Sequence record: PZ445450.1
Reading direction: 5' to 3' (one strand)
Origin: a phage
DNA length: 64,000 nucleotides
Part shown: positions 2,955 to 28,484 of the stretch, piece by piece
Numbering within the stretch: position 1 is the first letter of the stretch
How the letters are laid out: every line of letters starts with the position of its first letter
Translations under genes and position numbers: made by a program
The notes under the pieces: generated by a model
The model's database searches: none
What the model was told of the DNA's origin: nothing
The model's input: the letters and a program-made list of their open reading frames with translations, nothing else

Positions 2955-5732
2955 ATGAGTATGTATAGCTTCGATTTTGAGGCCTCTGGGCTTTTGGAAG
3001 ATCCAGACCTTTATTATCACTGCGGCCTGTTTAAAGCGTTGAATAAGAACCGTTTTATGCTGTTCCTTCCTCTGAATGACCGCACACACTACTCCGAGGA
3101 GGATATAGAAAAGGCTAAGAACTTCATTCTGGCAAAGAAAACTCTTTATAAAGATTTTGAAGTTCGCATAGCAGATTTTTCGGAGTTGGAAGGTTGGCTT
3201 ACAGGCAATTCTGACTGGTCACCAACAGCTTTGAACTGCCATAACTGCTACAGTTATGACTTTATGCTAATGGAAAGATTATCCGGTATTCATTTTGATA
3301 TGTTCCGTGATCCTAAATGCATGGGGACTATCAACGACCACCAGGTTAACCTGTTTGATACGTTGGCTATGAGCCGAATCTTGTGGCCTGATCGCCCTTT
3401 ACCAAAAGGTTGTCCGGACGCTGTATTCAACCCGGTTACTAAGAAAATGCAACCTGTTGGTCCTCACGGCCTTATGGCATGGGGCTACGCCCTTGGTAAC
3501 CAGAAAGTTCAAATTGATGACTGGCGCGATCTTCCGCTGTGGAAATATGTGGATCGTGTGTTCGAGGACGTTATCATCCAGGAGTTGCTCTGGAAAGAGT
3601 TGGTAGCGGAATCAAAAGGTGTATTCTACGGCAAATCTGACATGCAGAACTTTATGTATGACCCTGCCAAAGAGAAGCCTAAAGGATTCAAGAAGATTAC
3701 CTGGAAGAATGCATTACGCCGAGGCATGCTGCAGCATTTCCTGATGGAGTTGCAGGCTCGACAGGGTGTGTATTTCGACATAGATGGGGCTATTGCTTTA
3801 CGTGACCGCTGCGATGCGTGGATGAAAGAGATCGCTGATCGTGTTGAACCACAACTTCCTTTAAAAGAGTTATCAATGTCTCAGCGGCCTAAGTTCCCTG
3901 AAAAGCCGTTTAACCAGGATGGGACAATCTCCAATAATGGTTGGAAATGGTTAAAAGACAAGCTTGGCTACCCTGTGGACATGAGTGCTTTAGAATTCAA
4001 AGCTCCTCCTAAGCGAGCATTTACCTCCACAGGAGATGTCAGTAAGATGGGGATAAAATGGTGTGAAGAGATGGGCTGTAAAGACCCTGATAAGATGGCG
4101 GATTTCTTGAGGGGCTATATCAAGGGCACCTCCACACCACAACCTTTACCTAAAGAGCTAATGGATCAGGCAATAAGCGATCTACAGCAGAAGCGAATGC
4201 CTGACTGCAAGATACCTATGAAAATCAGCAATCAGGACGATATTAAGCGATACCTGATCAGTGCTGGTTGGCTTCCGACAATGTGGAGAACTAAGGATGT
4301 AACTAAAGACAGCAAGAAGAAAGCTCTACCTGATGCAGATGTTGATGCACGAGTGTATGCATATATGGACGAGCTTTTAGAGTCAGAGTATTGTGACCTA
4401 ATTATCAACTTCTGGAACAAAACTGATGCTAAGTTCCAGACAACCGTGCACAAGTTCCGAAGCTTTCCTAACTCCGAAAGGATTAAAAAGGAAGTATTCG
4501 GGAAAATACGTAGAAAAGCTAGGGCACTTATTACTTCTCCGCAACTGAAAGATACGTTTGGACACCTATGCCCGAATCTTGAAAAATTGAACGGAGAGAT
4601 GGCTAAAGATATCGTCTTGTGGTTATCATTGCGAAACCGCAGATCGGTCCTTGATCCAATCAAGGAGGATAAGGTTGATACTGGTCTTCTTAATCACCCA
4701 CGTTTGAAGATTGACCATAAGCTTCCTGCTAAAAGTTCTGGATTAACAAACACTTCCCGACAGAAACACAGTATTTGTGCAAACATGCCTAAACCATCTC
4801 CTAAAGTGGTTATGGGTAAAGAGATGCGTAGTCTGTGGGGTGTTCCTCCAGGATACTTTGAGATCGGTATTGACGGGTCCAACTTAGAGCAGCTTATCGG
4901 GGCTTGGGGTGCCTTTGAGTTCGACAACGGCTTGTACTATGATGTTGTAAGTAACGGAGACGCACACCAAAACAATGCTGAGGCATATACAAAAGTAGCA
5001 GGCAAAGAGGTGTCTCGTAACGACGGTAAACCTATCACGTATGGGGTTATGTACGGGGCACAAAAAGATAAAGTTGCAGATATGCTGGATATCTCCCCAG
5101 AGTTGGGGCAAAGGGTGATCGATGCACTTTGGGATGCCAACCCCGGTCTTAAGGGGCGCAAAGAGGATCTGGAGAAATTCTGGGAAGCAACAGGTAAGAA
5201 GTTTATCTACTCTTTTGATGGTCATGCTATCTGGACCCGATCTAAACACTCTTTACTTAATGCATACCAACAAAATGGTGGTGCATCGCTGTGTGACTTA
5301 GTTGGGATACTCATGCACCACCAAATGGTGAAGCGTGGGTGGTACGATGAAGGTGTCCGTCGTATTATTTATTACCATGATGAGTACCAACTTCAGGTCC
5401 CTGACACACCTAAGTATAAGACTGTGTACACCTTCGACACAATTGAAGAATTGGAAGCATTTAAGGCAGAGCAGGAGGCCAAACTTCATGTGTTCGACGG
5501 TCATAAGTACAAAAAGGCACGCAAGGATGAAAACGGAAACGAAGTGGTTGACAGAGACGGAAACACGGTGTACGATCCTATCCTGAACGATGACGGAAAG
5601 CTTGAACTTATCTGGAGCCCTGTGGGTGAAATGGTGGTGCATTGCTTCTGGCAAGCTTCTAAAATGATGGGCGTTCCATTCCAGATCACAGGTGAATACT
5701 TGTGCGGTCGTAACTGGGGTGATTGTCACTAA
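2955..5732 (+). CDS. DNA polymerase, family A, with 3'-5' exonuclease domain
   Basis: Exo I FDFEASG; motif A IDGSNLEQL; motif B RNDGKPITYGVMYG; motif C YYHDEY; RBS AAGGAGA. Confidence 0.9.
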   Translation: MSMYSFDFEASGLLEDPDLYYHCGLFKALNKNRFMLFLPLNDRTHYSEEDIEKAKNFILAKKTLYKDFEVRIADFSELEGWLTGNSDWSPTALNCHNCYSYDFMLMERLSGIHFDMFRDPKCMGTINDHQVNLFDTLAMSRILWPDRPLPKGCPDAVFNPVTKKMQPVGPHGLMAWGYALGNQKVQIDDWRDLPLWKYVDRVFEDVIIQELLWKELVAESKGVFYGKSDMQNFMYDPAKEKPKGFKKITWKNALRRGMLQHFLMELQARQGVYFDIDGAIALRDRCDAWMKEIADRVEPQLPLKELSMSQRPKFPEKPFNQDGTISNNGWKWLKDKLGYPVDMSALEFKAPPKRAFTSTGDVSKMGIKWCEEMGCKDPDKMADFLRGYIKGTSTPQPLPKELMDQAISDLQQKRMPDCKIPMKISNQDDIKRYLISAGWLPTMWRTKDVTKDSKKKALPDADVDARVYAYMDELLESEYCDLIINFWNKTDAKFQTTVHKFRSFPNSERIKKEVFGKIRRKARALITSPQLKDTFGHLCPNLEKLNGEMAKDIVLWLSLRNRRSVLDPIKEDKVDTGLLNHPRLKIDHKLPAKSSGLTNTSRQKHSICANMPKPSPKVVMGKEMRSLWGVPPGYFEIGIDGSNLEQLIGAWGAFEFDNGLYYDVVSNGDAHQNNAEAYTKVAGKEVSRNDGKPITYGVMYGAQKDKVADMLDISPELGQRVIDALWDANPGLKGRKEDLEKFWEATGKKFIYSFDGHAIWTRSKHSLLNAYQQNGGASLCDLVGILMHHQMVKRGWYDEGVRRIIYYHDEYQLQVPDTPKYKTVYTFDTIEELEAFKAEQEAKLHVFDGHKYKKARKDENGNEVVDRDGNTVYDPILNDDGKLELIWSPVGEMVVHCFWQASKMMGVPFQITGEYLCGRNWGDCH

Positions 5733-24788: not shown

Positions 24789-24817
24789 TTGACAGGGATC
24801 GGCAGTTTTGCTATATT
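24789..24817 (+). promoter_or_regulatory. Sigma70-like promoter
   Basis: TTGACA, 17 nt spacer, TATATT. Confidence 0.55.
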
Positions 24818-24866
24818 CTTTTTTGAAGGGAAGTTGTAAGAAAATTAACTAAGAGGTAAAAACACC

Positions 24867-25286
24867 ATGAACATTAAATCTGATAATCCGGCATATAGCT
24901 TTGATAACGCTTTTTGTCACGGTCCGGCGGCGAAAGGATTCGAAATCGATGGTAAACTAATTATTGTCAATGTTGACGGGGAAGAGGTTGCAGTATATCC
25001 GGTGGCAGACGTTAAAAGCCGTCTACAATGCCGCATAGATGTTACCGCCTATCAGCTTGATCCGGTCCGGGTAGTTGCCCTGGTCCTGGAAGAAGAAATT
25101 AAAGCAATGCACCACAGCAACAAGTTTATTGGTGACGCTCAAGATAATATGCAGGTATGCCGCTATAAAGTTAATGAAGTGCTTAAAGAGTACGGCTATA
25201 AGGATTTAATGATCAAGCGCGATGAAAAATTCCGCTACCGTAACAACCTGGCAAATCGGATTTTTGAAATATACGAATCATTATAA
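24867..25286 (+). CDS. Hypothetical protein
   Basis: AAGAGGTAAAAA RBS; 139 aa. Confidence 0.55.
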   Translation: MNIKSDNPAYSFDNAFCHGPAAKGFEIDGKLIIVNVDGEEVAVYPVADVKSRLQCRIDVTAYQLDPVRVVALVLEEEIKAMHHSNKFIGDAQDNMQVCRYKVNEVLKEYGYKDLMIKRDEKFRYRNNLANRIFEIYESL

Positions 25287-25305
25287 TTTCTTAACTGAAT
25301 TATCA

Positions 25306-25332
25306 AGGGGCTTAAAGGCCCCTTTCTTTTTG
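25306..25332 (+). terminator. Rho-independent terminator closing the + strand arm
   Basis: ggggcttaaaggcccc followed by tttcttttt. Confidence 0.7.
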
Positions 25333-26237
25333 TCTGCTCTTCTCCTACCATAAACGGCCCTACCTGGCAAGTGGAATAATTGACTAGCCATCAATCCCAC
25401 ATACTGTACAAATATACATGGAAAATAACTATTGCATAATCTTTCATTGTGCGGTAGCAGGGCCATTTTTACCCGTTTTCTCTCCCAAAAGTGCACGTAA
25501 TGCCGCTATTGCACAAATTTTAACCTGATGCACATATCCAATATCTTGTCAACAACTAAAAATCTTTATAAGTCATACACTTATACAGCATCGAAAGCGT
25601 GTTCTACGTGAAAAATCGAGTATAACTATAGCCGCCAGATCTCAGAATTCACGTACGCACGCCATTCTATAGCCTGCAAAGTATTTATTCCAACCACAGA
25701 ATAACGGAATAGTCAATACCTGCATAAAATAATTATTCGTGTAAACTGCATAACATAAATCAGCTCAGGTGTCAACATTTTTCGTAAACAGTCCGAAATT
25801 ATCACGATGAGTTATCATAAACAGAGAAATCTTTAGTCGTCTAATGTTTACTGTACATTACTATACTGACTGGAATCATTAGATGACTAAGAAAAAGATA
25901 AGAAATAATTAATAATGTAATTGTTTTATCTGTAACAATAAGGCAACCATGCAAACGAATGTCATGGCGCGACGGAGTCGCGACATAATATAAAAGCAGT
26001 AACCATCACCCCCGTGATAGTTTGTCTGCAATCTATTATTCAGATCATAGTTGCCTTGTATTTAGTTAATCATGACATAACAAGCAAGGCAACTATAGCT
26101 CTGATAATAGTTGCCCTGCTTTTATATTATGTCATAGATTGTTAGCTTGTTAACTGTCAGCCTGTTGGCTGTTAGCTTGTCAATTATTAAATTGCTAATC
26201 TTTATCATGCAAACGAATGTCATGGCTTATCATCTCT

Positions 26238-26294
26238 GTGTAAACAGTTTGGGCGTAAACTATTCAGGCGTAAACAGTCTATGCGTAAACAGTG
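26238..26294. repeat. Tandem approx 15-bp repeats with core GCGTAAACAG (4 copies)
   Basis: tgtgtaaacag / gcgtaaactat / gcgtaaacagt / gcgtaaacagt in tandem; GTAAACAG occurs at least 7 times between 25.7 and 27.4 kb. Confidence 0.6.
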
Positions 26295-27837
26295 AGATAT
26301 GGAATAGTAACAGCCGTTATTGTGTCATATTGTGTGACATTGTGTCCGGTGTCTGGTGTCCAGTGTGTCAGACAAGTTTTTCTCCTCTTTGTCAAGTGCT
26401 GCATGAAAAATTTACAAACTGGTATGGTAGCATTTTTGCGGCCCTGTTTACATTCAGTTGTGTATGTATAACCCTTGTTGTGTGGGCGTTTAGACGTCTA
26501 GACGGTTGGAAGTCTGCAGGTCAATATCTAATCTATCGGCTGCTAACTATATCCCACACAAATAGTAAGAAATATAATTGTTATGTGCGTAAACAGTAAC
26601 TCATGTTATCAATCCCTGTATGTATCGCCAGTGGTGCGCATAATGGGTATTATGTTAAATTGCCCGTAATGATAATGGTTCTCACAATGATAGGTATTCT
26701 CATTCATCCACACAAAATAGGTTGCAAATGTTGTGCCACTGTGTGAACGGCCTGGCCTATTAATTTCCCTCACTGCCTCGATATTTGAGAATTGTTATAA
26801 GAATGAGAAGTATTCCCATTTCGTCCGCCTGGCAGCACTCCTGTAGTCCTACAAGGACTCTAGCTGAAAGCTAGACCCTTCGGGCCTCCCTGCAGGTCAG
26901 GTCAAAATCGTGGTAGAATTGGGCTTATTCAGATATTTCTGGCCGACTCTTCAGGTCTGTGTGGGAAAAGCCAACCTCTCCGGCGGGGCAGGGGGAGGTC
27001 AATTAAAAAATTTACGTGGTGTATGAAGCGCTCTTCAGGTAAGGCAGGTATTATGGGATGAAACCCTCTTCAGGCAATGATATTTGTGGGTGTGATATTT
27101 GCTGGAAAGCCAGATATGACGGGACTCCCGGCGGGGATGGGGCAGTACAGACAGGGAAAATATGGGGATGTAGTTGGGTAAATTGATCAGACAGGTAGAG
27201 TATGGAATATGTTACAAGTATGTTAAATATGGAGGGTGAATATCTGTAGGATTTGTGTGTAAAATCAAAGACTTAAGCGGTGTTGTGGTATTTTCTATAA
27301 ATAATTCAAGTTTAATAGGTAATATTTGTCTCTATCCACTCTGTGTGGTAAACAGATTCAGATGATATTGGTTTGCAAGTGTATACATAATATACAAATT
27401 AAAGATACAAGAAACCCCCCTCCCCCTTCGGCTACCATTCACCTTTTCCTCTGACTGGTACTTAAACACTTATTCAGACTCTTCAGGTTATCACCCATAT
27501 ATCATATGGCAGTGACTGGTGTCCTCCGGCCCCTCTTTCGTCACCCGTCCGCTTCGCCATGCTAATGCCATAGCCAAATGTTCGGTTGTTCACCCTGTTC
27601 ACTCAGGTGTATCTCCATACCCCTTCAAACCGAAGAGAACAGAAAACCCGAATTACTCGGTAAAAGAAAAGAGAAGAACTTAATTTTATCATGATAGGCA
27701 AGAATGTCAAGGCATGACTGCTCACTAAACAAGCAAACAGTCATGTGTGGAAGGTAAGTGATTGTGGTGGTAGGAAATTTAGTTGAAAGATGTGTTATAG
27801 GTGCTCCCAGCACTTTAGCCGGGTAGCTAATTGTGTG

Positions 27838-28053
27838 TCAGTCCAGTGGTTCATCACCTACTTCACTGAAATCAATGTTCATGGTCTCCTCCCAACCATC
27901 AATCTCAGCACCAGAGTAGAGATCTTTAGGACTTACTCCCAAAGCCTCAGCAACAGAGTCTATATTTAACACCTCTGGCAGGTATGATTCATCGAATTCA
28001 AGGTAAATCAGGCCACGAGTGTTGTCAGCTCCACCAAATATTTCTATCTTCAT
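27838..28053 (-). CDS. Hypothetical acidic protein
   Basis: GAGGAG RBS before the internal ATG (MKIEIFGG...); start refined from the ORF track. Confidence 0.45.
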   Translation of the reverse strand: MKIEIFGGADNTRGLIYLEFDESYLPEVLNIDSVAEALGVSPKDLYSGAEIDGWEETMNIDFSEVGDEPLD

Positions 28054-28173
28054 GAAATCTCCTCTGGAAATGAGAATGTGAACAGGGTTTATATGTTCCA
28101 ATGCACTGGAATTATGCACGTTTGCCTCTTCAGGCCATGCTTTAGCATGAGGAACCTGTGTGGGCTCGGTGCT

Positions 28174-28386
28174 TCATAGTCTACCACCTCTGAACTCTTC
28201 GTGCTCAGGCATAATAGAGAACCAGATATCTACGATGTCTTCCCACGTTAGGTCATCAGCCTCAGGATCTACCTGGAGCGAAGATGGAGAATCTTCAGAA
28301 TTGAAGTTTTCCTCTTGCACTGGCTCAGTCAAGGGACATATAGTCACTCCTTTGGATGTCTCTTCAGACGCATGTGTGGTAGTCAT
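28174..28386 (-). CDS. Hypothetical acidic protein
   Basis: ATGA-coupled to the upstream small peptide. Confidence 0.4.
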   Translation of the reverse strand: MTTTHASEETSKGVTICPLTEPVQEENFNSEDSPSSLQVDPEADDLTWEDIVDIWFSIMPEHEEFRGGRL

Positions 28387-28484
28387 GTTCCACCCGTGAG
28401 TATTCCGGCAACAGCCGCTATGGAAGTAATGATCATCAGGATCACCACTAAAACTTCAGACAATGTTCTCATTGTGTATTCCAT
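28383..28484 (-). CDS. Small TM peptide (33 aa)
   Basis: GGAG RBS; hydrophobic; promoter immediately upstream. Confidence 0.35.
   Translation of the reverse strand: MEYTMRTLSEVLVVILMIITSIAAVAGILTGGT

Follow-up and report, generated by a model that had tools for sequence, protein, structure and literature searches.

Fill-in of staggered nicks is the classical T7 or Watson scheme for terminal repeats, and the processing of T7 concatemers further involves a hairpin end derived from a palindrome near the junction as well as a promoter, phiOR, that reads across it. This "hairpin end" intermediate was reportedly described by Chung, Nardone and Hinkle in 1990. In other phages such as lambda (R sites of cosB), P1 (pac hexamers), and SPP1 (pacL/pacR), the terminase recognition sites consist of repeated short elements. 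T7-like phages are known to carry arrays of short repeats with variable copy number beside their terminal repeat (PMC5923468). Closer to the present case, a terminal repeat of 459 bp has been reported in the Vequintavirus genus (PMC7471380), Korf et al. described terminal redundancies of 458 bp in phages EdH4 and HdK5 (PMC6563267), and Klebsiella phage KPP-1 of the Mydovirus genus in the same subfamily has a direct terminal repeat (DTR) of 514 bp that was classified as T7-type by PhageTerm (PMC9862379). Here, we describe the corresponding locus in a stretch of 64,000 nucleotides from phage sequence record PZ445450.1 (the window), where a 2.5-kb zone at 25333-27837 between two seemingly converging gene arms includes what we assign as a DTR of 459 bp at 26371-26829. 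The terminal-repeat junction as such is already known for the genus, and what is added here is the fine anatomy around the DTR and a candidate cut-site motif.

By BLAST, the region 25333-27837 is ca. 87% to 96% identical to 121 phage records that all belong to Vequintavirus, including rV5 and phages of the BASEL collection, and judging from this similarity the phage in the window is a Vequintavirus, i.e., an rV5-like coliphage with a genome of ca. 137 kb. Relatives outside Vequintavirus were not detectable at the DNA level, as a short-word blastn search returned the same 121 records only, and Mydovirus and other genera were instead reached via published DTR coordinates. Unless noted otherwise, the conservation figures below refer to an alignment of the window with 14 relatives (15 sequences).

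The direct terminal repeat and the physical genome ends

The record of phage Gotham is annotated with a 459-bp repeat at both ends, and its positions 1-459 and 136567-137025 both map to 26829..26371 of the window (BLAST), with position 1 of Gotham corresponding to 26829 and its last base to 26371. The records of ECP2303, ECP2309, YN3, EdH4, Pr121LW, bov11CS3, bov25_3, and EcoIv14a_Aya each begin or end exactly at 26371 or 26829 so that, together with Gotham, at least nine records from several laboratories have an end at one of these two positions. Because the record ends of relatives map there and the literature reports repeats of 458 to 459 bp, we assign 26371-26829 as the DTR that the packaged linear molecule carries at either end. 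It aligns over 459/459 bp at 95% to 97% with the DTRs of Gotham, ECP2309, Pr121LW, and others, is 93% to 99% conserved among the 14 relatives, and is delimited by a sharp change of conservation at both boundaries, whose junction cores are invariant. The other Vequintavirus repeats (459 bp in Gotham, 458 bp in EdH4 and HdK5) have the same boundary bases, are likewise located where the last genes of both arms face each other, and differ from the window only in the copy numbers and cassettes of the flanking arrays. Fixed ends on both sides and an exact repeat in the range of a few hundred bp, the hallmarks of a short T7-type DTR, are thus documented for the relatives by records and publications.

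Overall, we consider it very likely that the zone 25333-27837 holds the genome ends (concatemer junction) of a Vequintavirus. Of the four possibilities that a first-pass annotation had left side by side for this zone, among them a terminal-repeat junction, a replication origin, and a source of non-coding RNAs, the first is borne out by the ends at 26371/26829, while the case for an origin is circumstantial and the case for non-coding RNAs comprises one good promoter and no Rfam or folding signal (see below). The virion 5' ends are predicted at 26371 on the + strand (5'-GACAAG...) and at 26829 on the - strand (5'-GGCGGACG...). The assembly is circularly permuted relative to these physical ends, which is why the DTR is seen only once and why the gene arms appear to converge; transcription of the arms in the virion DNA is directed outward, towards one end each. 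The majority of the ca. 120 Vequintavirus genomes in the databases have been opened at an arbitrary position, with the zone left blank or filled with spurious small open reading frames (ORFs). Ends at 26371/26829 would give the correct genome start for annotation and mark the DNA needed for packaging, which matters in the engineering of therapeutic-candidate phages.

The first-pass annotation had proposed a comparison with related phages and would have taken a lack of conservation as one of the points against its readings of the zone. Outside the repeat arrays, however, conservation of the 2.5 kb turned out to equal or exceed that of the flanking genes, and specific short motifs are invariant across relatives. 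These observations also bear on the idea that the zone merely separates two convergent transcription units, as a passive spacer or buffer for termination, and owes its repeats to slippage, which would fit the converging arms, the strong terminator that closes the + strand arm, and arrays that vary like slippage products. As it conflicts with this profile of conservation and with the physical ends that map here, we rejected the idea and find it hardly credible.

No ORF with a credible ribosome-binding site had been recognised in the region by the first-pass annotation, and the comparison agrees with this view. Among the 14 ORFs with a length of 40 amino acids or more, the majority is interrupted in most of the 14 relatives (ORF 25281-25496, e.g., is broken in 13 of them), and the ones that remain open are located in DNA that hardly varies and have no excess of substitutions at third codon positions, unlike the adjacent real gene with its 13/10/28 variable columns by codon position. 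The region 25333-27837 is therefore non-coding and holds no conserved ORF. It is also free of genes in the curated annotations of rV5 and the BASEL phages, the rV5 genome paper shows it in grey as a "non-coding" box (PMC3606486), and a scan for transfer RNAs and transfer-messenger RNAs found none. Automated annotations do place ORFs of 30 to 100 amino acids here (16 in NHEP1, and gp129 of Murica, Pr121lw_1, and Pr121lw_2 as further examples), as would be expected if small protein genes had been missed by gene callers or annotated in some records only, but the ORF conservation and codon-position counts led us to reject hidden genes as extremely improbable.

Two further observations concern the repeat itself. 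A palindrome with a perfect core, CGTTTAGACGTCTAGACG, is found inside the DTR at 26487-26504, overlapping GACGTC and TCTAGA in a stretch that is 93% to 94% identical across the 14 relatives. Furthermore, the record of Shigella phage CM1 (MK962749) contains at 1914-2960 a tandem duplication of 64 bp of the GTGTCA array plus the whole DTR, of which the first copy stops exactly at the terminal ...CGTCCGCC and across which two "hypothetical proteins" are annotated. This duplication is probably an assembly artefact from reads stopping at the physical end.

The boundary motif and its occurrence in other genera

The left boundary of the DTR reads TGTCA|GAC (26366-26373, + strand) and the right boundary reads TGCCA|GGC (26827-26834, - strand). 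If one follows, at each boundary, the strand that supplies the virion 5' end and enters the repeat from its flank, both are instances of TGYYA|RRC in inverted orientation to each other, and these two boundaries are the only matches of the motif within the zone. The boundaries of the KPP-1 repeat, confirmed by the records of phages DP and KP12, read TGCTA|GAC and TGCTA|AAC, so that the four boundaries of Vequintavirus and Mydovirus all carry TGYYA|RRC. The ends of the two repeats are also alike beyond this motif, with GCCA|GGCGGACGA in the window versus GCTA|GACGGACAG in KPP-1 at one boundary and CTTGACAAAGAGGAGAAAAACTTGTC| versus CTTGACAAGGAGAGAGAATTGTGTT| at the other; the resemblance can be written as G(A/G)CGGAC for the former and CTTGACAA(A/G)GAG...TTGT for the latter.

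By contrast, the interiors of the two DTRs barely align (best local E-value of 3.6e-4), and their repeat families differ. As in the window, the DTR of KPP-1 lies in a gene-poor zone between converging arms and is flanked by families of short repeats, and a compound palindrome of unrelated sequence (z = -11.1) is found on the same side, 309 to 514 bp from the boundary; this layout is common to the Mydovirus phages KPP-1, DP, and KP12. Because KPP-1 shows the same arrangement around an interior that can hardly be aligned, the genome-end architecture is conserved between Vequintavirus and Mydovirus where the sequence is not. We note that positions 3969-4530 of KPP-1, covering the right two-thirds of its DTR and the following sequence, are 70% to 75% identical to Seunavirus phages (PVP-SE1 and SSE121), Certrevirus-like Cronobacter phages, and coliphage 4MG. 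Several genera of the subfamily thus have conserved terminal-repeat sequence in common, but this does not detectably extend to Vequintavirus.

An independent test of the motif was possible with Pakpunavirus phage Adele (PV469300) of the Vandenendeviridae, another family, which has a DTR of 1165 bp; the terminases of Vequintavirinae and of DTR-bearing Vandenendeviridae are related (PMC12846349). The left end of Adele reads TGTTA|AGCGACAG and, with TGTTA|AGC, matches TGYYA|RRC in full. It also resembles the G(A/G)CGGAC(A/G) of Vequintavirus and Mydovirus.

Repeat arrays, palindrome, and promoter beside the repeat

All repeats listed by the first-pass annotation are indeed present within 10 bp of the positions that it gave and far above chance, and three arrays (26135-26180, 26318-26346, and 26342-26366) come on top of that list. 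The left flank opens with a non-coding spacer at 25333-25947 (84% to 97% identical across relatives) that carries one copy of GTAAACAG at 25784 and is followed by a compound palindrome of 152 bp at 25982-26133, 238 to 389 bp from the DTR boundary. Its outer arms of 18 nt are 100% complementary and identical in 13/14 relatives, while its interior comprises a 22-nt hairpin and a long hairpin on ATAGTTGCCTTG/CAAGGCAACTAT, a 12-bp inverted repeat at 26047-26058 and 26085-26096 that had been noticed in the first pass at about 26053-26103 and now emerges as the core of the larger structure. As single-stranded DNA, the palindrome folds with -47.9 kcal/mol (z = -10.6 versus shuffles). It is bracketed on the + strand by two copies of the 21-mer CATGCAAACGAATGTCATGGC, of which the first (25948-25968) is retained with 1 to 2 substitutions in 13/14 relatives and the second lies at 26206-26226 (first placed at 26207).

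Directly left of the DTR, a hypervariable zone with short tandem arrays extends over 26136-26365, with identity dropping to 39% to 63% at 26160-26359. The arrays, called with Tandem Repeats Finder, all lie on the + strand. About half of the relatives lack the first of them (26135-26180; period 8, TAGCTTGT, ca. 6 copies) and have a GC-rich double-hairpin cassette of unrelated sequence in its place. The slot 26135-26200 is occupied by either an 8-bp TTGTTAGC-type array or the GC-rich double hairpin (GAAACGCCCGAAGGGGTGACC...GGTCACCTGGCATAGCCAGCGAAA), with phage SYGMH1 carrying both. The second array, at 26240-26293 (26238-26294 in the first pass), has 3.6 copies of a 15-bp unit with GTAAAC core (GCGTAAACAGTnnnn) and varies from 1 to ca. 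9 copies among close relatives at a column identity of only 60% to 63%; we regard its units as candidate protein-binding iterons, possibly for terminase. It includes several of the eight copies of GTAAACAG in the 64-kb window, where 2.1 are found in shuffles. Seven of these copies, compared to ca. 0.08 expected, fall inside the region (25784, 26240, 26270, 26285, 26589, and 27348 on the + strand; 26444 on the - strand), as the first-pass count of at least seven had suggested. The third array, GTGTC(A) at 26318-26370, has a period of 7 to 10, was reported as 26318-26346 (period 10) plus 26342-26366 (period 7), and is variable among relatives. Its last GTGTCA unit stops exactly at the DTR boundary, and the junction ...GTCA|GACAAGTTTT is invariant in 14/14 relatives. 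A terminator-like hairpin at 26350-26374 was considered as a mark for the cut but dropped because folding at the boundary is not significant.

Direct repeats in tandem, dyad symmetry, and an AT-rich patch make the left flank resemble iteron origins such as lambda ori or plasmid oriV, and the zone might be or also contain a replication origin at which an initiator binds the GTAAAC iterons and the AT-rich patch and palindrome unwind. Consistent with this idea, the array at 26240-26293 reaches the three or more tandem copies expected of iterons, the dispersed GTAAACAG copies are almost confined to the zone, the palindrome is large and conserved, the AT-richest patch of the zone has a GC content of 26% (25850-25949), and the cumulative GC skew has its maximum at 25 to 29 kb. 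Yet this turn of the skew coincides with the switch of the coding strand, as the authors of the rV5 study concluded for their phage (PMC3606486), and there is only one DnaA-like box (with one mismatch to the consensus) instead of a cluster. Unlike in iteron origins, no initiator gene was recognised beside the zone (the flanking ORFs 24867-25286 and 27838-28119 have no Pfam match), and the 15-bp period is out of helical phase. Moreover, iterons that range from 1 to ca. 9 copies among phages with 90% to 96% identity, next to swapped cassettes, would be unusual for an essential origin. We therefore view an origin as unlikely, though it does not exclude the terminal-repeat reading and would be compatible with it.

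On the right side, an indel cassette of 49/50 bp with hairpins (26840-26888) lies 10 bp outside the DTR between direct repeats of CCTGTAGGTC (10 bp). Of the 15 aligned sequences, 8 contain it, and in Gotham an unrelated insert of 32 bp takes this position, marking the site as an insertion hotspot. Farther out follow three + strand sites of CTCTTCAGG at 26947, 27031, and 27066 (118 to 245 bp outside the DTR; identical in 13 to 14 of 14 relatives) and a fourth at 27479-27487 (identical in 14/14), matching the four copies that the first-pass annotation had seen between 26.9 and 27.5 kb. The window has eight copies of this motif in total where 0.5 are expected, all of them on the + strand. The remaining ones at 28126, 40535, 47168, and 48035 are inside - strand genes, where the complement CCTGAAGAG is the sense-strand sequence, and probably reflect a codon effect; the copies at 40 to 48 kb were for this reason not counted as part of the feature. 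A GC-rich motif CCGGCGGGGCAGGGGG (CCGGCGGGG(N)(A/T)GGGG) occurs on the + strand at 26980 (ca. 10 bp from the first-pass estimate of about 26990), among the CTCTTCAGG sites, and at 27128, and is less conserved among relatives than these sites.

The outermost part of the right flank is an ultra-conserved non-coding block at 27400-27837 in which 36/438 columns vary among the 15 phages. It exceeds the neighbouring genes in conservation and is 96% to 100% identical at 27410-27659. Host mimicry or recent capture from E. coli found no support, as 26830-27837 has no match in 5,426 E. coli genomes. On the - strand, the block contains a near-consensus sigma-70 promoter at 27710-27683 (TTGACA, 16-nt spacer, TG, TAAAAT; 11/12 matches) that is the best match in the scanned 3.6 kb (24800-28400), is aimed at the DTR, and would read across it. 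Its TG and -10 element are identical in 14/14 relatives and its -35 element in 13/14.

Such a conserved promoter with extended -10 element, followed by a block that surpasses the neighbouring genes in conservation and holds no conserved ORF with a coding substitution pattern, raises the question whether it drives a conserved non-coding RNA from 27400-27680. However, this block folds no better than shuffled sequences (z = -1.2 for the - strand; z = -0.3 for the + strand), varies too little for a covariation test, and has no convincing terminator beyond a 5-bp hairpin ca. 20 nt downstream. Rfam 15 gave no match across the whole window at gathering score, and a search of the region at E-values up to 5 returned only chance-level microRNA hits on the palindrome (E above 0.4). 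A non-coding RNA thus seems quite improbable to us. A literature search for transcriptomes of these phages and for details on T7 pacB yielded nothing usable.

Returning to the terminal-repeat reading, we tentatively propose, as an idea that is less likely than not to hold in full, that the surroundings of the DTR form an undescribed concatemer-processing apparatus of a large myovirus clade made up of TGYYA|RRC as a nicking motif in inverted orientation, fast-evolving terminase-binding arrays, a conserved compound palindrome, and a host-type promoter that is transcribed across the junction. Within the terminal-repeat reading itself, replication or recombination would probably generate head-to-tail concatemers with one repeat per junction, on which a packaging nuclease would be positioned by the GTAAAC and GTGTCA arrays on one side and CTCTTCAGG on the other. 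Cuts at both boundaries, placed at TGYYA|RRC on opposite strands, would produce 459-nt 5' overhangs with recessed 3' ends, and fill-in by a polymerase would leave each daughter with a full repeat. The inverted geometry of the two motifs would fit staggered nicks with fill-in, and the conserved palindrome and the junction-crossing promoter could be helpers in processing as in T7. If true, this apparatus would mirror the repeat arrays, hairpin, and phiOR promoter of T7 without sequence homology.

Like T7, the phage would thus have a non-coding repeat of a few hundred bp that is exactly the same at either end, with variable arrays beside it, and what may be an analogous palindrome close to the junction on one side together with a promoter across it. 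It has no sequence homology to T7 and differs in being a 137-kb myovirus without phage RNA polymerase that would use a host sigma-70-type promoter, and in having genes that run outward to both ends while those of T7 all run in one direction. Clusters of oriented short repeats beside the cut site are also reminiscent of lambda cosB and the pac sites of P1 and SPP1, but the ends of those phages are cohesive or formed by headful packaging rather than exact terminal repeats, and terminase binding is only a candidate function here. No terminase gene was identified in the examined parts of the window. The arrays, palindrome, boundary motif, and junction-crossing promoter are testable candidates for the formation of exact repeats in a phage other than T7.

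Several points weigh against this interpretation of the locus. The ends of this particular phage are assigned by homology and not from its own reads, and in one paper, PhageTerm assigned another Vequintavirus to headful packaging with partial permutation. Arrays, palindrome, and promoter are tied to packaging as candidates, and local folding at both boundary segments is not significant. As for the boundary motif, it was partly derived from the very sites that it describes, and the right end of Adele fits at only 6/8 positions. With 40 matches in the window versus 36 expected, TGYYA|RRC is also non-specific on its own, i.e., too common to provide specificity, which makes the flanking arrays natural candidates for positioning the terminase.

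The gene arms and neighbouring sequences

The arms converge in the assembly as described by the first-pass annotation, with the last + strand gene ending at 25286 and the last - strand gene ending at 27838. The + strand arm is closed by an intrinsic terminator at 25305-25324 (AAGGGGCTTAAAGGCCCCTT followed by a T-run) that is annotated in the records of Murica, Alma, and Gotham and whose stem is kept in the 14 relatives. Its many loop and stem variants preserve pairing across these phages and represent a small natural case of compensatory change. The - strand arm to the right of the region encodes functions in nucleotide metabolism (NrdD, NrdA/B, and ThyX) as well as a ligase.

The 139-amino-acid ORF 24867-25286 that borders the zone on the + strand is missing in Alma, WM, HMD-6, SYGMH1, FV3, slur16, A142, and Gotham, and because it is absent from about half of the relatives, we interpret it as an accessory gene inserted beside the genome end. 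The Murica record lists a "Rel homology domain" for this ORF. Among the database records, ca. 19 entries named "Campylobacter phage" (MG0656xx, UNVERIFIED, host C. jejuni) are 93% to 97% identical to the region and classified as Vequintavirus, which makes their attribution to C. jejuni as a host look doubtful.

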